Source: Thermodesulfobacteriota bacterium
GTDB taxonomy: Bacteria > Desulfobacterota > Desulfobacteria > Desulfobacterales > SURF-7
Direction: 5' to 3'
Assembly: GCA_049320885.1 (NCBI GenBank)
Contig: JBMORA010000013.1
Location: forward strand, 87,264-151,263
Length of the DNA: 64,000 bases
Below are positions 10,815 to 60,995 of this stretch, in pieces; the stretch's first letter is position 1; each line of letters starts with the position of its first letter. Below the pieces are notes generated by a model. It did no database searches. It worked only from the letters and a program-made list of their open reading frames with translations, and was not told the origin of the DNA. Both the position numbers and the translations under genes were made by a program.

Positions 10815-13800
10815 CTATGGATTGGCCCGCACCGTATTGAAAATATCCTTGGCCAGGATGGGAAAGGCGGTTTCTTGAAATTCGCTGTCGGCCATGTAAC
10901 GCGTTACGATCCGGTCGTTTTCCGTCATGCGTTCGAGCATCAGATCTTCAATGAGCTTACGGATGCCCAGCACGAATTTATCCAGCGGATTGGCCAGCGC
11001 CGTTTGAACCACCTGATCGTTCTTGCAGGCCTTTTCCTTGATCTGCTGAAAAAAGAGCCGGTCCTCCTCGGAAAACTGCGTGCCGAACCGCTCGTTGAGG
11101 ACTTCGATGATCTCGGATAGCGGCGCTTTTTCATCCGTGACGTTGCCGGTGCCCACGTCCGTCGGACTTTTTACGAACTGTTGTTCGCCGTCCTTCAGCG
11201 TAATAGGGCCCGCAAAAACCCGCTCCATCCGGTAATATTGCAACGCCACGTCCTCCCCTACCTTGATGATCAGGGCATCGCGGTCCATGGGCAGGTGCGG
11301 ACCGAGGAAGCGGCCGAAACTGTAAAGCATTTCCAGCTCGGGATCGGCATAGGGAATGATCTGGCTCAGAAAGGCATACACCCGCACGAAGCCGCCCAAT
11401 TTATCGCGAAACTCCCGGCGTTTCTCCGGGTCCTGAAGGCTTTTAAAACGATCCACCGCCGGTTGCAGGTGCCGCTGCATATGGGCGTGGTCCGCGGCAT
11501 TCTGAAGGGCGATGGGTTTGTAAAAGATCCGGGCAAAGGCCGTAACTTCGCTCCAATGGTAAATCTGGGTCTGGTCCAGTTCATGCTTCAGGCTTTCGAG
11601 CCGGGCCGGGTCGGAAGGCTCTCTCAAGCCGGTCTTGTCGTAATAGGGCTTGAAGGCCCGGTAGATATCCTCGGTCTCGTTGATAAAATCCAGCACAAAG
11701 GGCGCATCCTTGCCGGGAATCATACGGTTGAGCCGGGAAAGGGTCTGCACTGCCTGGACCCCGTCCAGGCGTTTGTCCACATACATGGTGTGCAGCAGCG
11801 GCTGGTCAAAACCGGTCTGGTATTTGTTGGCCACCAGCAGGAGATGATAGTCCGGGGAATTGAATCGTTCGGGCAGGCGGGATTCACTGATGGATTTGCC
11901 GGTCACCAAATCCGTGTTCATGCCCGGCCCCGTGTATTTGATCCCGGTTTCCGGGTCTTTTACCGTGCCGCTGAAAGCCACCAGGGGCCGGACGTCGCTA
12001 TAACCGTTTTCAGCAATATAGCGCTGAAAGGCGATCATATAGCGCACGGCATGCAGCCGCGAGGAGGTCACCACCATGGCCTTGGCCCGGCCGCCGAGCC
12101 GATGCCGGACAACCCGGCGGAAATGCTCCACCATCACTTCGGTCTTTTGTTCGATGTTGTGGGGATGCAGGCTTATGAACTTGGCCAAGCTCCTCACCGC
12201 CCGTTTTTTCGGCAGGTTCGGATCGTCCTCGGCCGCCTTCAGCAAGCGGTAATAAACGGCATAGGTGGTGTAGTTGGCCAATACGTCCAGGACAAAGCGC
12301 TCCTCGATGGCCTGGCGCATGCTGTAAATATGGAAAGCTTCATGAATGCCGTCCGTGCCGGGCCGGCCGAACAGCTCGATGGTTTTGCCCTTGGGCGTGG
12401 CCGTGAAGGCAAAAAAGCTCAGGTTGGGCTGGGGGCCGCGGGACAACATCACCTGGCTCAGCCGGTCTTCCCAGTCCGCCTCGCCTTCCTCGGTTTCATC
12501 CGGCACCGCTCCCAGAATGGACTTCAACTCCCGGGCCGTTTCCCCGGTCTGGCTGGAATGGGCTTCATCCACGATGACCGCGTACTTCCGGGCGGCGATG
12601 GCGGCCTCCCATTCCCCGGCCTTTTGCTTTTCCGCATCCGTGGCTTTTTCCCGGCTCTCGGCGCCGGCGGCATGCAAAAGGCCGCGCAGCACGAACGGAA
12701 ATTTCTGCAAGGTCGTGATCACGATCTGGGTCCCGTCGATGAGCGCTTCCGAAAGTTGCCTGGAATCCTGATCAATGGCCTTTACCACGCCCTGGGCATG
12801 CTCGATCTGATAAACCGCGTCCTGAAGCTGCCGGTCCAGAATGCGCCGGTCGGTGATGACGATGACGCAATTGAAAATCTTGCGGTCCTCCCCGTCATGC
12901 AGGCTCGCCAAACGATGGGACAACCAGGAGATGCTGTTGGTCTTGCCGCTGCCGGCCGAGTGCTGGATCAGGTAATTGCGCCCCGTCCCTTCCGTCCGGG
13001 CGGTGGCCACTATCCGGCGCACCGCGTCGAGCTGGTGAAAACGGGGAAAAATCAGGGTCTCCTTGACCGCGCGCCGCTTGCCGCCGAGCCCGTCGTCGAC
13101 CTTTTCGTCTTTTTTTTCTATAAACATGAAATGGCCGAGAACATCGAGAAAACTGTCACGCTGGAGTACTTCCTCCCAAAAATAACCCGTGCGATAGCCG
13201 GACGGATGCAGGGGATTGCCCGCCCCGCATTGGACCCTGCCTGGTTGGCTGCCACGGTTGAACGGCAAAAAGTGGGTGGCCTCCTTTTGCAGGCGCGTGG
13301 TCATGTGGACTTCATCCGGATCAACGGCGAAATGAACCAAGGCCCTTGTCTTGAATCCGAAAAGGGGCGCGCGCGGGTCCCGGTCCTCTTTATATTGCTG
13401 CACGGCCTTGCGCCAGGTTTGCCCGGTGCCGGGATTCTTGAGTTCGCAGGTCGCCACCGGCAGACCGTTGAGCGCCAGAAGCATATCCACGGTTTCCTGC
13501 CCGCCCGGCCGGCAAGGCGCCTGCCGCGTCACCGTCAACCGGTTCCGGGCGTAAAGCGCCGCCACCTCCTCGTTCAAGCCATGGGCGGGCTTGAAATAGG
13601 CCATTCGGAAAATCCTGCCGTAGAACTTGAATCCATGTCGAAGAATGTGCAAAGTGCCCTTGAGATTCAGCTCCTTGACCAGGGTATTCAGTATCAGATT
13701 TTCCAAACCGGCTCCGTGCAGGCCCTGCATATCGGCCCAAAGCCGGGGCTGGGTTTCCCGCAGGAATGCGCAAATCCGCGCCGGAAACAAGGCCCGCTCC

Positions 13801-13898
13801 ACGTCCCACCCGGCTTTTGATTCCCCGACCCAGCCGGAGCGGGTTAAAAGCGTTTGTTCGATATAGGTCTCAAAGGCCTGCTCGGAGGTTGGTTTCAT
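10815..13898 (-). CDS. hsdR: type I restriction endonuclease subunit R
   Basis: Nuclease motif VD...NGLPVATCELKN, Walker A QHSAGSGKT, DEAH, FTATP, TGFDQP and QTLSRLNR. Confidence 0.95.
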   Translation of the reverse strand: MKPTSEQAFETYIEQTLLTRSGWVGESKAGWDVERALFPARICAFLRETQPRLWADMQGLHGAGLENLILNTLVKELNLKGTLHILRHGFKFYGRIFRMAYFKPAHGLNEEVAALYARNRLTVTRQAPCRPGGQETVDMLLALNGLPVATCELKNPGTGQTWRKAVQQYKEDRDPRAPLFGFKTRALVHFAVDPDEVHMTTRLQKEATHFLPFNRGSQPGRVQCGAGNPLHPSGYRTGYFWEEVLQRDSFLDVLGHFMFIEKKDEKVDDGLGGKRRAVKETLIFPRFHQLDAVRRIVATARTEGTGRNYLIQHSAGSGKTNSISWLSHRLASLHDGEDRKIFNCVIVITDRRILDRQLQDAVYQIEHAQGVVKAIDQDSRQLSEALIDGTQIVITTLQKFPFVLRGLLHAAGAESREKATDAEKQKAGEWEAAIAARKYAVIVDEAHSSQTGETARELKSILGAVPDETEEGEADWEDRLSQVMLSRGPQPNLSFFAFTATPKGKTIELFGRPGTDGIHEAFHIYSMRQAIEERFVLDVLANYTTYAVYYRLLKAAEDDPNLPKKRAVRSLAKFISLHPHNIEQKTEVMVEHFRRVVRHRLGGRAKAMVVTSSRLHAVRYMIAFQRYIAENGYSDVRPLVAFSGTVKDPETGIKYTGPGMNTDLVTGKSISESRLPERFNSPDYHLLLVANKYQTGFDQPLLHTMYVDKRLDGVQAVQTLSRLNRMIPGKDAPFVLDFINETEDIYRAFKPYYDKTGLREPSDPARLESLKHELDQTQIYHWSEVTAFARIFYKPIALQNAADHAHMQRHLQPAVDRFKSLQDPEKRREFRDKLGGFVRVYAFLSQIIPYADPELEMLYSFGRFLGPHLPMDRDALIIKVGEDVALQYYRMERVFAGPITLKDGEQQFVKSPTDVGTGNVTDEKAPLSEIIEVLNERFGTQFSEEDRLFFQQIKEKACKNDQVVQTALANPLDKFVLGIRKLIEDLMLERMTENDRIVTRYMADSEFQETAFPILAKDIFNTVRANP

Positions 13899-13913
13899 CA
13901 GGATGTCCTTGCT

Positions 13914-14140
13914 GCCATCAAATAACCGTCAAATAAACCCGATCTTGCGTAAATTATCTTATTACAAATAGTTAAACAAAATATATAGTGACCGATATCT
14001 GTTATTCAACCGGATCCATCAAAATGCCATCAAATAAACTGTGAGAAATGTAAATTGTTTAATTACAAATTGTTACCAATAAATCACCATGCGACTACCT
14101 CCATCACTCACCCCACTCCATCAAAATGCCATCAAATAGA
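13914..14140. repeat. phased non-coding repeat array: three 24 bp boxes and two 26 bp AT-rich boxes, period 101-102 bp
   Basis: Box A at 13914, 14015 and 14117 (TCCATCAAAATGCCATCAAATA is exact in the last two). Box B at 13949-13974 and 14050-14075 (22/26 identical), each 11 nt after a box A. Confidence 0.9.
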
Positions 14141-14156
14141 AAATCCATGCCGGCAA

Positions 14157-15623
14157 TCAGCCCCAAAATGGAACATATTTGGCATATTTACGCCACGCCT
14201 CGGGATTATGGAGCCGAATCAGGCCCTCCTCGATGGTGTCGCGGATGATACGCGAGGCCGTAGCGCTGTTTTTCGCCTCAATACCGAAACGGTCTCTCAA
14301 TGTCGTATTGGTCATGTAGTCCCGGTTCACATATTTCAGACAGGCATGCAGGTAGCAGGCCCGGATACGGTCGTCTTTTTCCATGTCACCAAGAGCGCGC
14401 GGGGTGTACAAGATTGTTCGCGTATGCTCGTCGGTCACTTCGAATATGGGGGCCGGTAATTGGTGATATTCGGTTTGAAAGACCACCTTGTCGATGCCGC
14501 TGCCGCGTTCCTCGCAAATTCCGACCCTTCTCATGAAAGAAGTCAGAGCCTCGTTGCGCGACTTGGGCGGGCTGTCCAGAAACCGCTCGGTTTTTACCAG
14601 GGGCAGGCCCGGATTGGTGATTTCCATGCGATTCGAGAAAATTTCAATCATCGGTCCGGTGCCGCGAATGAAAAAATCCTGATGAAGGATGGCATTGGCC
14701 ACTAGTTCGCGCACCGCCGGTTCGGGGAATACCAGAACTTCCCGGCGCAGGGCCTGACCGATGACCTCATTGCTCGGCAAAAGGGTGTTGATGTAATCCA
14801 TCAGCGCTCCAAATCCTGCCGCATAGCCCTTGACGCCGACCTGCTCGCGAATGGTTTCCAGGCGGCTCCCATTTTTATAGACGATAACCCGCACGGCCTT
14901 GCGCTTTAGATTCTTGAAATCATCCAGCCTTTTGGCGAACAGGATCGCGCCCATATTGGTGATGTTCCAACCCCCGGCTTCGCAAGGCGAAATCATTTCG
15001 TCTTCGGCCAGGCGCTCCAGAATCCCCTTTCGATTTTCCGGAAGACCGAGTCCCAACAGATCGAAATAGGCCGGGTAGTCCAACAGGCGCAAGACTTCCT
15101 CAGCGGCGAGGCAATCGGCGGCCGGCAGTTGTTCAAAGGGGGTTTGATCAAAAATGCGCCACAGCGCCCGCTCTTTTTCCGGATACTCCTTGAGCCTCTT
15201 TTTGTAGGAGCCCACCCGGATGAACTCCCGCCCCTGGAACTGCACCGGGTTGCTGGATGCCCGGCTGATCTCCAGAATCACCACCGGCGCGTCTTCGAAA
15301 TTGATTTCATGAAAACTGAAATGAATGCGCGGGCTCAACAAGCGCAGCAGCCAGCTTTCCAGTTCCTCACTACCCTTCCTGGCCCGGGCCGGACAAAAGG
15401 CGGTTCCCTTGACTTCATGGGACTGATCGTCGATGCCCCACACCAGATACCCATTGGCTTTGCCGCACAGGGCCGCCGAGTTGCTCAGGGCGGAAATATA
15501 TTCGCCGATTTCCTGGGGATCGGCAAAATTGGCCTTGAACTCCACCCATTCGGTCTCTTTGGGCAAGGCCCGCAGCTCCCGCAGCAAGCCGGTCAGATAG
15601 GCCCGGGTTCGGTCCATGTTCAT
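14157..15623 (-). CDS. AlbA_2 (Schlafen-like) + HATPase_c_4 (RecG-C-like) + wHTH protein within the hsd operon
   Basis: N-terminal KETEWVEFK..ISALSN..GYLVWGIDD; RELVANAILHQDF..ITNPG..SRN..EERGSG; C-terminal MTNTTLRDRFGI..SRIIRDTIEEGLI. ATGA overlap with the hsdS stop. Confidence 0.85.
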   Translation of the reverse strand: MNMDRTRAYLTGLLRELRALPKETEWVEFKANFADPQEIGEYISALSNSAALCGKANGYLVWGIDDQSHEVKGTAFCPARARKGSEELESWLLRLLSPRIHFSFHEINFEDAPVVILEISRASSNPVQFQGREFIRVGSYKKRLKEYPEKERALWRIFDQTPFEQLPAADCLAAEEVLRLLDYPAYFDLLGLGLPENRKGILERLAEDEMISPCEAGGWNITNMGAILFAKRLDDFKNLKRKAVRVIVYKNGSRLETIREQVGVKGYAAGFGALMDYINTLLPSNEVIGQALRREVLVFPEPAVRELVANAILHQDFFIRGTGPMIEIFSNRMEITNPGLPLVKTERFLDSPPKSRNEALTSFMRRVGICEERGSGIDKVVFQTEYHQLPAPIFEVTDEHTRTILYTPRALGDMEKDDRIRACYLHACLKYVNRDYMTNTTLRDRFGIEAKNSATASRIIRDTIEEGLIRLHNPEAWRKYAKYVPFWG

Positions 15624-16981
15624 GCAGCGACCTCCCTGACATCGATTTTACCCGTTACGGCGGCGGTGATCAGGGCTGTGCGGTATTCCCGGAGTCGTTC
15701 GATGATGATTTCGATCTTGTCGACCGATTGGTCGATTTTGGCAGTTTCGCGATTGAGAAAATTCGCGATGGCGTTTTGCTCTGGTAATGGAGGCTTTGGA
15801 AACCGGTAACGACGAAGTTTCTCTCCAGTGAGATGATGAATGGTGTTTGGATTGCCTTCAGAAATAAATACCCCTTTTTGTGAAGCCCAGAAAAAAACAT
15901 AGAACATGAACCGTGGTACTTCCTTACCATTTAGTGGCCGCATCCTGTGAAGTGCTTTTTGGTATCCTATTGAAGAGCCTTTTTGTTTGACAATTGCAGC
16001 TCTTCCGACCTCACCTCCTTCACAAACCAAGATATCGCCATCTTCTATTGTATATCTTTTTCTCTCATCATCTCTAATGTCCATTTCAGGTAAATCGTCG
16101 AAGTTGATATTGTCCCATTGGACATCAATATTACGAAGGTAGGGAACCAAACACTCGCCTGTTATTCGATTTTCATTCAGCATCTTGCCGAGTTCTATCG
16201 AATAGCGGGTATATAGCGGTGGTGTTTCCCAATGCTCTGGTACATCGCCGAGCCATTCTATGCCGGAAGGTTTGAGCTTGGGGTACGGATCGAGGCCGGC
16301 AGCGCGGGCTGCTTCAGGCGGGAGTCCTCGGGTGACCGTGCGCGAGATGAGTGCGGTGCGCTTTTCCTTCAGCTTCTCGATCAACTCTCGCTTTTTCGAT
16401 AACAGCTTGTCGATCTTTGCAGTTTCTCGATCGAGAAAAATAGCGATGGTGTCCTGTTCGAGCATACAAGGAACAGATATAAATAAGTCTGTATATTTCT
16501 CAGCGCTTACATTCTGAATAGTAGTTTGTATATATACTGAAGATAACCATTGCCAGTAGCTATTCGAAGCTGTAAAATATCGGACATAAGCAGGAAGTGC
16601 TTTCTTACTATGAAGCCTGGCTCTAATCAAATAGCCTGCATATGCGCAATTTCCCCAGCTTTTTTTATATAGAAAAGTCTTCCCGGCAGTGGCCCCACTT
16701 CTAGCAAAGAGCAAGTCCCCCTCTTTTAGTAAAAACGGCGAAGCAACTTCATTTGGAAGAGAACGGAATGTTTCATCACGCAAATTACCAAGCTCGTCAA
16801 TATCCGTTATTCTTATATAGCGGGGCAAATCTGGATCATCCAATTCAGCTGACTCATTAGCACCATATTTGAGAACTTCGACAAGTAAAAACTTCAGCCG
16901 CTTCACTCCCCAACCCTCCGGCACATCCCCCAGCCATTCGACACCGCTGGGCTTGTATTTGGGATAGGCAGGATATTTCAT
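15620..16981 (-). CDS. hsdS: type I restriction-modification specificity subunit
   Basis: Duplicated conserved blocks KPSG(V/I)EWLGDVPE(G/H)W and EQ..IA.FL.RETAKID..E.RTALI flank two AT-rich TRDs. Confidence 0.95.
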   Translation of the reverse strand: MKYPAYPKYKPSGVEWLGDVPEGWGVKRLKFLLVEVLKYGANESAELDDPDLPRYIRITDIDELGNLRDETFRSLPNEVASPFLLKEGDLLFARSGATAGKTFLYKKSWGNCAYAGYLIRARLHSKKALPAYVRYFTASNSYWQWLSSVYIQTTIQNVSAEKYTDLFISVPCMLEQDTIAIFLDRETAKIDKLLSKKRELIEKLKEKRTALISRTVTRGLPPEAARAAGLDPYPKLKPSGIEWLGDVPEHWETPPLYTRYSIELGKMLNENRITGECLVPYLRNIDVQWDNINFDDLPEMDIRDDERKRYTIEDGDILVCEGGEVGRAAIVKQKGSSIGYQKALHRMRPLNGKEVPRFMFYVFFWASQKGVFISEGNPNTIHHLTGEKLRRYRFPKPPLPEQNAIANFLNRETAKIDQSVDKIEIIIERLREYRTALITAAVTGKIDVREVAA

Positions 16982-17313
16982 TCCATGCCCCCGGATTGCC
17001 CCAATTCGTGTTCGATTTTCCTGATAATAAGAGAAGAAGCATATTCTAATATACCTTTTATACGGAATCTAATTTTAAAAATTTTCACCACGAAGGACAC
17101 GAAGGAAAGCTCTATATATGAAGCATATCCTGGAAAATCTTCGTGACCTTCGTGTACTTCAGCGAAGCGGGTGGTGGAAAATATTGTGACATTCTTTTTC
17201 CTGTAAAACCATATGGTAGTAATTACAAGATCCCTTAGCAGAACGAACATCTGCAATTGTGCCGCGCCCTTTGGCACAATTGAACGTGTTTCCATTTTGC
17301 CGGACTTTTTCAC
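16978..17313 (-). other. 111-codon ORF or gene remnant coupled between hsdM and hsdS
   Basis: Starts at a GTGA overlap with the hsdM stop and ends at an ATGA overlap with the hsdS start. AT-rich, contains a palindromic element, no recognisable domain. Confidence 0.4.
17082..17181. repeat. palindromic element with 9-nt tandem arms (type often seen around GxxExxY genes)
   Basis: Left arm TTTTCACCACGAAGGACACGAAG; right arm CTTCGTGACCTTCGTGTACTTC[AGCGAAGCGG]GTGGTGGAAAA. Confidence 0.75.
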
Positions 17314-19406
17314 GCCGTCACCTCTTTCAGCAAAGCCAGTATCTCACCTTCCAGCGTCTTGATCTCCGCTTCGATGACCTCTAGGGGGCGCGGCGGTTCG
17401 TAGCAATAGAAATGCCGGTTAAGCGGAATCTCATAGCCGATCTTGGTTTTGTCGTGGTCGATCCAGGCGTCCGGCACATGGGGCAGGACTTCGCGCTGAA
17501 AATAGGCCGCGATATTCTCCTTGAGGGGCACGCTCTCGGTGTCGCGCAGTTCGGGATCGGGTTCGGGATTGCCGTGCTTGTCCACACAGATTTCGGCGGT
17601 TTCGTCGCGCTCGCCCAGGGCGCTCTGGATGGCCTTGAGTTCCGCGCCGGAAAGACGCACACCCTGCTTGCGATCGATCTCCCGCAAATCCTGGAGAAAC
17701 GTATTGCGGTCCTTGTACAGCTTGCCCTTGCCGGATGCGGCAAGCGCTCCCAGCAGGTCGCGGATTTGCTGCTGCCGTTGACGGCCGGTCTCGATTTCCG
17801 CCTGGGCCGCGGTCTCGCTTTTCTTGTTGCTGGCGGCCAAATTCTTGAAGGCGGTTTCCGTTTCCAATCGTTCCATGCGCTCGGCCGTCACCTGAAAATT
17901 GAGCCGTAGGGGGCGTTCCACCGTGATCTTGTGAAAGCCGAAGTCCGCGTTTTCGAATACCTTGCTCACCACCCGGGTCTTCTGAAGGCCGTTGGTGCTG
18001 AAATTCCAGGTTTCGCCATCCTGGAAATTGCCGAAGATGCGCGCGATATCGCCGATCTGATCCGGTTCACCCTCATCCGTGTCGCCGATCTTGTTGCGCT
18101 TGTTGCCCAGGCTCTTGCGCATCTTGATGAAAAACTGCCGGGCGTCGATGAGTTGAATCCTGCCCTTGCGCGGGGATTCCTTGCGGTTGGTCAAAATCCA
18201 GATATAGGTGAAAATGCCGGTGTTGTAAAAAAGCTGGTCGGGCAGGGCCACCACGGCCTCCAGCCAGTCGTTCTCGATGATCCACTGGCGGATGTTGCTT
18301 TCACCGCTGCCTGCGTCGCCGGTGAAGAGCGGCGAGCCGTTGAAGACGATGGCGATGCGGCTGCCGCCGTCCTTGGGGCCGCGCATCTTGGAAATCATGT
18401 GCTGGAGGAAAAGCAGGGAGCCGTCGTTGATGCGCGGCAGCCCGGCCCCGAAGCGGCCTTCGTATCCCAGGGTCTCGCTTTCCTTTTTGATGTCCTTTAA
18501 TTGTTGCTTCCATTCCACGCCGAAAGGCGGATTGGCCAGCATATAATCAAAGGTGATCCGTTTGCCGTCGGCGGAGCGGTCGAAACCGTCCCGGGTAAAG
18601 GTGTCGCCCAGGCGGATGTTGTCGGCGTCCTCGCCTTTTATGAGCATGTCGGACTTGCAGACGGCCCAGGCTTCATCGTTCCAGTCCTGGCCGAAAAGCA
18701 GGGGATTGGCCTGGGAGTTGAGGTTGCGGATGTAATTCTCGGCCACCGACAGCATGCCGCCGGTGCCGCAGGCCGGGTCATAAATGGTTTTCACCACATG
18801 GCTGCGGCGCAGATCCTTTTCCGGGGAAAGCAGCAGGTTGACCATCAGCTTGATCACCTCCCTGGGGGTGAAATGCTCCCCGGCCTCCTCATTGGCTTGC
18901 TCCGCGCCGATCCGGATCAGTTCCTCGAAAACATACCCCATCTGCAGGCTGTCGACCCGTTCGGAAAGATCGATCTTGGCAAACGCCTTGATCACCTCAT
19001 ACAGCAAATTCTTCTCGGCCATGCGCGCAATCTGCTGGTCAAAGGCGAAACGTTCCATGATCTCGCGCACGTTCTTGGAAAACCCGTTGATGTAGGCGTT
19101 CAAATTCGGTGCAAGTTGCGGCGAGTCGTCGAGCAATTTCGGCAGATCCAGTTTGGAGAGGTTATAAAACGGCTTCCCGGTGATTTTCTCCAGCAGGCTG
19201 CGCACGACGTTTTCCGGTTTGGCCTGGATAGCAGCGTACTCTTTCAGCACCTTGTCCTTGGTGGGTGCCAGCAGACAATCAAAGCGCCGCAACACGGTCA
19301 ACGGCAGGATGACCTTGCGGTATTCATTGCGTTTATAGGGTCCCCTGAGGAGGTTGCAGATGCTCCAGATGAAATTGGCCAGCTGGGAGTGGGTTGCTTC
19401 GTTCAT
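17310..19406 (-). CDS. hsdM: type I restriction-modification N6-adenine methyltransferase
   Basis: AGEHFTPREVI, DPACGTGGML, NPPF and FYNTGI motifs. Confidence 0.96.
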   Translation of the reverse strand: MNEATHSQLANFIWSICNLLRGPYKRNEYRKVILPLTVLRRFDCLLAPTKDKVLKEYAAIQAKPENVVRSLLEKITGKPFYNLSKLDLPKLLDDSPQLAPNLNAYINGFSKNVREIMERFAFDQQIARMAEKNLLYEVIKAFAKIDLSERVDSLQMGYVFEELIRIGAEQANEEAGEHFTPREVIKLMVNLLLSPEKDLRRSHVVKTIYDPACGTGGMLSVAENYIRNLNSQANPLLFGQDWNDEAWAVCKSDMLIKGEDADNIRLGDTFTRDGFDRSADGKRITFDYMLANPPFGVEWKQQLKDIKKESETLGYEGRFGAGLPRINDGSLLFLQHMISKMRGPKDGGSRIAIVFNGSPLFTGDAGSGESNIRQWIIENDWLEAVVALPDQLFYNTGIFTYIWILTNRKESPRKGRIQLIDARQFFIKMRKSLGNKRNKIGDTDEGEPDQIGDIARIFGNFQDGETWNFSTNGLQKTRVVSKVFENADFGFHKITVERPLRLNFQVTAERMERLETETAFKNLAASNKKSETAAQAEIETGRQRQQQIRDLLGALAASGKGKLYKDRNTFLQDLREIDRKQGVRLSGAELKAIQSALGERDETAEICVDKHGNPEPDPELRDTESVPLKENIAAYFQREVLPHVPDAWIDHDKTKIGYEIPLNRHFYCYEPPRPLEVIEAEIKTLEGEILALLKEVTA

Positions 19407-19453: not shown

Positions 19454-19482
19454 TTCATAATCAAATCCCTCCGATGTGTCAA
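19454..19482 (-). promoter_or_regulatory. putative sigma-70 promoter of the hsd operon
   Basis: TTGACA-N17-TATGAA on the minus strand, 47 nt before the hsdM ATG. Confidence 0.5.
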
Positions 19483-19485
19483 TTT

Positions 19486-19610
19486 TGATGAAATGGTAAC
19501 AAGTCTTCTTTCCGTCACTCCCGCGAAGGCGGGAGTCCAGAACTATATGAAAGAACTGGATTCCCGCCTTCGCGGGAATGACAGAATATGGACTTGTTAC
19601 CATTTCATCA
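19486..19610. mobile_element. MITE-like element: perfect 20 bp terminal inverted repeats enclosing a REP/dRS3-like palindrome pair
   Basis: TGATGAAATGGTAACAAGTC (19486-19505) pairs with GACTTGTTACCATTTCATCA (19591-19610). Inner GTCACTCCCGCGAAGGCGGGAGTCCAG...CTGGATTCCCGCCTTCGCGGGAATGAC at 19514-19582. Confidence 0.8.
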
Positions 19611-60918: not shown

Positions 60919-60995
60919 TGGTAGGCGCGATTGGAGTTGAACCAACGACCTCTACCGTGTCGGGGTAGCGCTCTAACCAACTGAGCTACGCGCCT
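60919..60995 (-). tRNA. tRNA-Val(GAC)
   Basis: AGGCGCGTAGCTCAGTTGGTTAGAGCGCTACCCCGACACGGTAGAGGTCGTTGGTTCAACTCCAATCGCGCCTACCA folds as a full cloverleaf with encoded CCA. Confidence 0.95.

Follow-up and report, generated by a model that had tools for sequence, protein, structure and literature searches.

A phased direct-repeat array with an IHF-type site follows Schlafen-ATPase genes and covaries with their winged-helix domain

Comparative sequence analyses identify an array of phased direct repeats that belongs to the Schlatpase gene preceding it, family-wide and across phyla, Schlatpases being proteins with Schlafen (SLFN), GHKL-ATPase and winged-helix domains. In the family element, an IHF-type site is flanked by two clusters of direct repeats with an 11-bp unit, and the repeated word is very likely read by the C-terminal winged helix-turn-helix (wHTH) domain of the protein. 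This cis element and its recognition code are new to the literature that we searched; the protein family is known. The founding array lies in the window, i.e. the whole stretch of 64,000 nucleotides of a Thermodesulfobacteriota genome that was analysed, in the gene order hsdM-hsdS-Schlatpase-array-hsdR, with all genes on the minus strand (Table 1).

The array occupies a 258-bp gap (13899-14156) between the Schlatpase gene and hsdR and comprises three A boxes, which start at 13914, 14015 and 14117 (spacings of 101 and 102), and two B boxes, which are identical at 22 of 26 positions and each lie 11 nt past an A box. All coordinates, spacings, box identities and the gap length of the original prediction were reproduced. 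Each A box contains two copies of the true repeat unit, which is 11 bp long and reads TTATTTGAYGG on the coding (minus) strand. Exact CCRTCAAA-N3-CCRTCAAA occurs three times in the 5.6-Mb genome, always within this array, and box B has no other copy in that genome at up to 5 mismatches. The possibility that the A-box motif is a genome-wide dispersed repeat, named beforehand as one of the cases that would count against the prediction, is thus ruled out, since the paired word is confined to the array. Single 10-mers of the array word occur 36 times (twice for a reverse-read control, which is not informative). The linkers had been described as differing, and they are unrelated: the 11-nt linkers from A to B have 1 of 11 bases in common. 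The long spacers of 40 and 41 nt are at most weakly related, given an alignment score of 15.5 versus 11.8 +/- 1.9 for shuffled sequences.

Table 1. Features of the array and of its genetic context in the window
Feature	Position	Strand	Description
hsdR, type I restriction subunit	10815-13898	-	context gene
Repeat cluster A1, gene-distal	13915-13936	-	two 11-bp units, TTATTTGACGG + TTATTTGATGG (coding strand)
Box B1	13949-13974	.	degenerate IHF-type site at 13962-13974, with A/T tract
Variable spacer 1	13975-14014	.	contains a chance-level sigma70-like site (minus strand, 14009-13980)
Repeat cluster A2	14016-14037	-	units TTATTTGATGG + CATTTTGATGG
Box B2	14050-14075	.	degenerate IHF-type site at 14063-14075
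Variable spacer 2	14076-14116	.	41 nt
Repeat cluster A3, gene-proximal	14118-14139	-	units CTATTTGATGG + CATTTTGATGG
Schlatpase gene, 488 aa	14157-15623	-	SLFN_AlbA_2 (residues 23-144), GHKL/HATPase_c_4, C-terminal winged helix
Winged-helix domain, residues 412-488	14160-14390	-	columns of its recognition helix and wing track the repeat variant
Wing residues 476-480	14184-14198	-	within the winged-helix domain
Recognition helix 450-465, including S453	14229-14276	-	within the winged-helix domain
hsdS	15620-16981	-	context gene; 4-nt overlap with the Schlatpase start codon
hsdM	17310-19406	-	context gene

Two claims about the boxes required amendment. Both B boxes carry CAA-N4-TTA, as had been noted in favour of IHF binding, but each has two mismatches to the IHF consensus WATCAANNNNTTR, among its first three bases, and exact WATCAR-N4-TTR is absent from both; they end 38 nt from their clusters, within the family mode of 36-38. 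The repeated A+B unit is present in the window, but the family element proved to be cluster-IHF-cluster, and the third cluster is an uncommon extension, with three-cluster chains at 7 of 124 loci among the matches listed in a motif scan. Clusters A2 and A3 have a CAT variant in common that is not found in A1, which suggests that a newer array (A3-B2-A2) was probably stacked onto what is left of an earlier array (B1-A1). A homologue from another family (G092) is part of the same module, with 75-81% DNA identity and a two-cluster array, and 25 nt of cluster A1 are identical to that array.

Outside the array, a dispersed repeat with many copies in another genome of our set (G171) lies between hsdM and hsdS (17075-17198). 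A 111-aa open reading frame at 16978-17313 overlies it, has no family match and is likely not a gene. Upstream of hsdM (19480-19610) lie two REP-like palindromes in inverted orientation, an element that related genomes contain in many copies. The only tRNA gene of the window, tRNA-Val (GAC) at 60919-60995, is 46 kb from the array.

The Schlatpase protein harbours PF04326 (E 5.8e-21) and PF13749 (E 2.1e-21) in one chain, both above cut-off. An alignment of 50 Schlatpases shows no variation at residues E23, E28, K30, E306 and N310. The first three make up the nuclease motif E-x4-(D/E)-x-K, the SAFAN-type box reads SALSN at 44-48, and E306 and N310 are the E-x3-N ATP/Mg residues of the GHKL domain; judging from their spacing, the latter two probably correspond to E314 and N318 of RzAgo. 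These catalytic residues match the motifs given for RzAgo in the available text of a preprint (Kuzmenko et al., bioRxiv 10.64898/2026.05.29.728809). A structure model of the protein (pLDDT 89) gave a fold match to DIP2311 (PDB 3lmm). In the model, the wHTH consists of helices 416-432, 439-446 and 450-465 and strands 469-471 and 483-485, and the winged-helix domains to which residues 412-488 can be aligned include those of Z-alpha (4kmf; Z 8.7, rmsd 1.7, 62 aligned), IdeR (4o6j; Z 8.8, rmsd 2.0, 64 aligned) and LexA (1leb). A single-sequence fold of the wHTH alone, at pLDDT 54.5, was left out of the analysis. PADLOC and NCBIfam yielded no meaningful model for the protein. By its domains and motifs it is a member of the known Schlafen/GHKL-ATPase/winged-helix family, with a predicted tRNase activity.

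The association between array and gene was approached from both sides. A motif-only scan of GTDB genomes with a 21-nt pattern returned at least 124 distinct loci, 45 of which had flanks of only ~300 nt; among the matches listed, 53 of 124 have a tblastn match to the Schlatpase protein (two of the 53 are distant and two are the same gene), and none of the 16 viral loci does. Conversely, a motif-blind statistic detected phased repeats within 200 nt past the stop codon at 65 of 99 protein-selected loci, versus 0/88 at +300 to +500, 0/99 in the coding sequence, 2/84 upstream and 0/1010 in shuffles. With the motif classes added, 91 of the 99 loci have an array, including one (L246) where it is upstream. 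Seven of the eight loci missed by both tests have <45% identity, and 7 of 16 homologues at 30-45% identity are devoid of a downstream array by either test. Among 25 relatives of hsdR, the array is present solely at the one carrying the Schlatpase gene. Since the array follows the Schlatpase gene and not hsdR, control of hsdR is unlikely as its general role. Of note, a tractable member of the family is an Escherichia coli homologue (WP_064178607.1; L358:3344-5000), which neighbours a retron and an integrase gene and whose 2+2 array has its clusters 97 bp apart.

The same collection of loci bears on whether the Schlatpase might bind the array only as an operator or roadblock that sets the level of its own gene or of the next one, here hsdR, with the nuclease being triggered otherwise. 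The arrays of four loci (L037, L052, L059 and L246) sit just 5' of the start of the gene, the next gene is co-oriented in 44 of 70 loci (within 260 nt in 26 of them), and in the window A1 ends 15 nt from the hsdR ATG. Yet an array upstream of the gene is found at only 2 of 77 protein-selected loci, the next gene is in opposite orientation in 14 and absent in 12 of the 70 loci, and 24 of the 25 hsdR relatives lack an array. Moreover, -10-like hexamers located 16-18 nt past TTGAY words number 6-11 of ~112 per position, versus 5-13 expected. We consider this operator role unlikely. From the hsdR relatives, the orientation of next genes and the few -10 signals, we reject the narrower idea that the general role of the array is that of an hsdR promoter or regulator.

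We then analysed array geometry in 116 loci with TTGA-class words, pooling motif-selected and protein-selected loci. Two clusters are present in 114 of them, and the modal layout, 2+2 units, is found in 55, while 59 of the 116 depart from it. The distances between clusters pile up at 66, 77, 88, 99 and 110 bp, corresponding to a period of 11.0 bp (n=109; R 0.76, where the null reached at most 0.34). Of 113 spacers, 22 contain the exact IHF consensus, versus 1.0 +/- 1.0 in shuffled sequences; when one mismatch is allowed the count is 63, versus 18 +/- 5, which leaves 50 spacers without a site. The sites are found in either orientation and lie mostly about 25, 36 or 47 nt from cluster 2, and the A/T content peaks at 14, 25 and 36 nt, i.e. 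every 11 nt. An IHF/HU-type protein probably bends the spacer such that the two clusters lie antiparallel. The host genome has seven IHF/HU-family matches, none above the ihfA/ihfB cut-off, a threshold reached by just 1-2 of 14 control genomes. A search for an additional DNA signal in the 3' end of the gene revealed no synonymous-site conservation, and the phasing from the stop codon to the first unit is weak (R about 0.4).

Next, we compared the repeat words with the protein sequences. The family displays at least ten repeat variants. Ten word classes were defined by eye, and 129 of 143 loci were assigned to one, the 14 loci without a class being dropped. The covariation set contained 91 non-redundant full-length rows, after removal of 12 of 103 rows over 85% identity; duplicates, short-flank loci, L068 (frameshifted end) and L054 (internal stop) were also dropped. 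The seven of 488 columns with the highest excess mutual information with word class are S453 (1.07 bits), R478, Y480, W477, D462, I459 and A476, for a mean of 0.12-0.19 in the protein body, and they all map to the recognition helix, at its start, and to the wing in the structure model. Ser or Ala at position 453 goes with ATTTGA in 43 of 46 cases, Lys with AATTGA in 6 of 6 and Tyr with ATGTRA in 5 of 5. On a FastTree tree built from residues 1-420, the word class changes 26 times. Phylogenetically independent pairs taken from this tree associate Lys453 with the AATTGA, AGTTGA and kGTTGA words in 7.6 of 8 cases, without any reversal (p 0.008); the corresponding values are 5 of 7 for the Ser/Ala453 contrast (p 0.06) and 3 of 3 for Tyr453. 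In leave-one-out nearest-neighbour assignments, the class was recovered for 79 of 91 loci with the whole wHTH, 53 of 91 with the protein body and 52 of 91 with helix 2. The helix plus wing gave 87 of 91, with columns chosen on the same data. In a held-out set of 29 new loci, 13 of which have a class and 16 do not, helix plus wing (12/13), body (11/13) and whole wHTH (10/13) were tied as predictors. A further class, TAACTTGC, is common to L265, whose protein is 64% identical to that of the window, and to three loci at 42-45% identity (L372, L373 and L385), and all four proteins have a TAP(R/K) wing.

As the wHTH codons adjoin the array, the covariation could come from module swapping alone. This caveat is opposed by the sequence signal peaking on helix 3 and the wing and not on helix 2, and by the upstream-only arrays of L246 and L052, which lie 1.5 kb from the wHTH codons and still fit the code. 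Linkage, phasing, IHF enrichment and the location of the top columns in helix and wing together make it very likely that the Schlatpase binds its own array. Two of the checks put forward with the original prediction, comparable arrays beside homologues and a motif that covaries with the wHTH, thus turned out positive, the former by the motif-blind test and the latter by mutual information, tree pairs and leave-one-out assignment. The proposed involvement of IHF is supported by the enriched and phased consensus sites of the family spacers. The proposal of a bent nucleoprotein platform for the wHTH gains from the arrays, the covariation and the phased IHF sites, but fits less well the B boxes of the window itself, two positions off consensus. 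In one locus with an upstream array of its own class, a second, unrelated repeat pair, 71 bp apart, is present downstream (L246:4440-4540).

What such an assembly might do can be framed as follows. The wHTH would bind head-to-tail on each repeat cluster, an IHF-type protein would impose a U-turn in the spacer and make the arms antiparallel, and two asymmetric dimers, i.e. head-to-tail protomer pairs, would come together on the 2+2 sites to form a tetramer with C2 symmetry. We hold such a tetramer to be rather likely, by analogy with a Schlafen-Argonaute relative: the RzAgo Schlatpase is described as an ATP-driven tetramer made of two C2-related asymmetric dimers in the available text of bioRxiv 10.64898/2026.05.29.728809. 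The tetramer on the loop would represent a guard state, with few copies per cell and the predicted tRNA nuclease kept in check. Breakdown of host DNA, phage DNA-mimic proteins or loss of the island would free or switch the Schlatpase, which would then cut tRNA and abort the infection, as a back-up to the surrounding restriction system. Methylation- or restriction-type genes are neighbours at 11 of 23 loci examined. The guard state and its release triggers are the weakest inference in this scheme. That the array holds a restrained, predicted tRNase that is released on loss of the loop is a tentative proposal, which we regard as nearly as probable as its negation. We prefer restraint because the cell that makes this predicted tRNase always contains its site, so that holding the enzyme is a simpler role for the site than firing it, and dependence on intact, IHF-bent DNA could enable it to report host-DNA breakdown or DNA mimics aimed at the restriction system. 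Restraint would need expression feedback, since four to six sites hold few protomers; our sequence analysis detected no such feedback.

Given that the tetramer is the nuclease-competent form in RzAgo, the array could instead promote activity, serving as an activation platform that assembles this form and is normally masked or needs a second signal from phage. In favour of this, two antiparallel arms in a 2+2 layout have the geometry of the RzAgo tetramer in which the SLFN cleft is reconstituted. Against it, a chromosomal activator would always be present and would require a further brake, of which we saw no sign, and apo RzAgo has minimal activity. We deem activation quite improbable. Finally, the repeats might act as RNA, in the form of a type III toxin-antitoxin-type antitoxin or a guide array, as the transcript that encodes a predicted RNase includes them, always in one orientation. 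They have no Rfam match, the folding z-score is +0.32 for the window array with a mean of -0.4 over 70 arrays, and helical phasing together with IHF sites in both orientations points to duplex DNA, making a role as RNA extremely improbable.

Beyond restraint on a loop, the arrays could delimit a small mobile cassette or serve as its crossover sites, on which the wHTH and IHF would build a synaptic complex for an unlinked recombinase. Tyrosine-integrase arm sites are tandem direct repeats next to an IHF site, a layout that the arrays resemble. Three loci (L217, L059 and L168) have one array copy on either side of the gene, which may be accompanied by a passenger, and the similarity between the two copies stops at the array ends; the bracketing copies of L217 span about 113 bp with 1 mismatch. 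Among the matches listed, two-cluster arrays are present at 39 of 99 motif loci, most of them without a close homologue and often beside other defence genes, and tandem stacks of arrays exist. Brackets are nevertheless rare, upstream arrays being limited to the 2 of 77 loci mentioned above. At a Bifidobacterium site, 18 of 19 related loci are devoid of both gene and array, indicating that the array is not a standing target. The arrays differ from integrase arm sites in that they have no core site or linked integrase and that their word tracks the Schlatpase wHTH. No conserved core was found and spacers are not conserved; the 13 tyrosine-recombinase (PF00589) matches of the genome are all outside the contig of the window, and no tyrosine recombinase was found among 59 neighbours at E 1e-15. 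In addition, remnants of the last codons of the gene persist at 7 of 26 orphan arrays and at none of 52 controls, a pattern suggestive of deletion scars. We regard the mobile-cassette explanation as improbable.

Two candidate observations at the Bifidobacterium locus were discarded. The array was not found as a standing attachment site at any of the 18 gene-free loci there, and an apparent gene stub corresponds to the terminator of the upstream gene, which is present in the empty site too. Orphan arrays also yielded observations in their own right. In L001 and L080, a macrodomain (DarG-like) gene is followed by an orphan array of two clusters, which comes with a strong IHF-type site and the remnant of a Schlatpase C-terminus. 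Uninterrupted tandems of the array 11-mer, in up to 11 copies, are found in three loci without a homologue (L006:4001-4120, L032 and L102), two of which, L006 and L032, are Nitrosocosmicus records.

No description of such arrays was found in the titles and abstracts searched, which cover mostly open literature. The label MloB led to no paper in the literature search, and a candidate record, PMC13590631, proved, as far as its available text goes, to be unrelated. In the available texts, Schlatpases number 60,692, or 58.6% of 103,533 prokaryotic Schlafens (Kuzmenko et al., bioRxiv 10.64898/2026.05.29.728809), and the pSlfn-HisKinase-HTH form accounts for 19.2% of prokaryotic Schlafen architectures (Perez Taboada et al., PMC13056530). 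The Schlatpases of the preprint, the latter form and DIP2311 (3lmm) share with the window protein the SLFN and GHKL domains, the catalytic motifs, a C-terminal HTH and a location in restriction or defence loci; for the stand-alone HTH Schlatpase, the available parts of both papers give no trigger, DNA site or array, and 'IHF' has no occurrence in the main text of the preprint. The control described there differs from the one proposed here, as SLFN-pAgo is controlled by guide RNA filaments and RorSlfn5 by an Ig-like sensor.

PrrC and RloC, as described in the available text of PMC3874168, are also tRNase-ATPases; like the window protein they reside inside type I restriction-modification (RM) loci, and they are read as a back-up defence. 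Their nuclease and ATPase folds differ from those of Schlatpases, and PrrC has an ABC-ATPase N-domain followed by a C-terminal anticodon nuclease, as opposed to the SLFN-GHKL-wHTH order. RloC is likewise switched by DNA, but what it senses is breaks, with no sequence-specific site involved. PrrC always occurs with a type Ic RM system, which silences it, whereas Schlatpases are not invariably so linked: 8 of 32 protein-selected loci of at least 6 kb match the Hsd proteins of the window. P1 parS (PMC5016525, available text) also has repeats around a DNA-bending IHF site, which promotes binding of an adjacently encoded protein. It combines two different boxes and is next to parAB, whereas the array has one direct-repeat word, with hsd neighbours and no ParA or ParB, and its presumed binding protein is a predicted RNase.

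Few prokaryotic Schlafen architectures are as common as the Schlafen-ATPase-HTH form, for which we found no description of a trigger. A conserved cis element with a helix-to-base code offers a direct handle on these proteins, as it predicts their ligand, stoichiometry and host factor. It also suggests that an open reading frame cloned without its 3' flank could change phenotype in defence screens, and it places about ten natural orthogonal protein-DNA pairs on offer. If the guard model holds true, genomic DNA itself would be an added class of antitoxin. In its broadest form, which we consider doubtful, this very large Schlafen class would use a piece of its own chromosome as antitoxin: a sequence-coded, IHF-bent loop would cage the tetramer and act as a sentinel of genome breakdown, DNA-mimic anti-restriction and island loss, with swappable wHTH-plus-array modules forming orthogonal pairs, and the in-frame repeats of Fic-like_C proteins would follow the same principle within the gene.

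These repeats were found in sister families that harbour a Fic-like_C HTH domain. At 20 of 23 loci (L290-L319), exact in-frame tandem repeats of 11-13 nt occur just before the Fic-like_C HTH, as counted without a shuffle control; the set includes one protein from the genome of the window itself (L303, G000:C61). Some of these repeats have an 11-nt period and encode a non-repeating peptide, which points to selection on DNA. In L300 and L313, a Schlatpase-sized open reading frame has two tandem Fic-like_C HTH domains with 12-nt repeats between them. In L029 (3850-4170), a Fic-like_C Schlatpase gene is followed, upstream of pglZ, by two clusters of a 12-bp repeat that enclose an orphan ATTTGA array.
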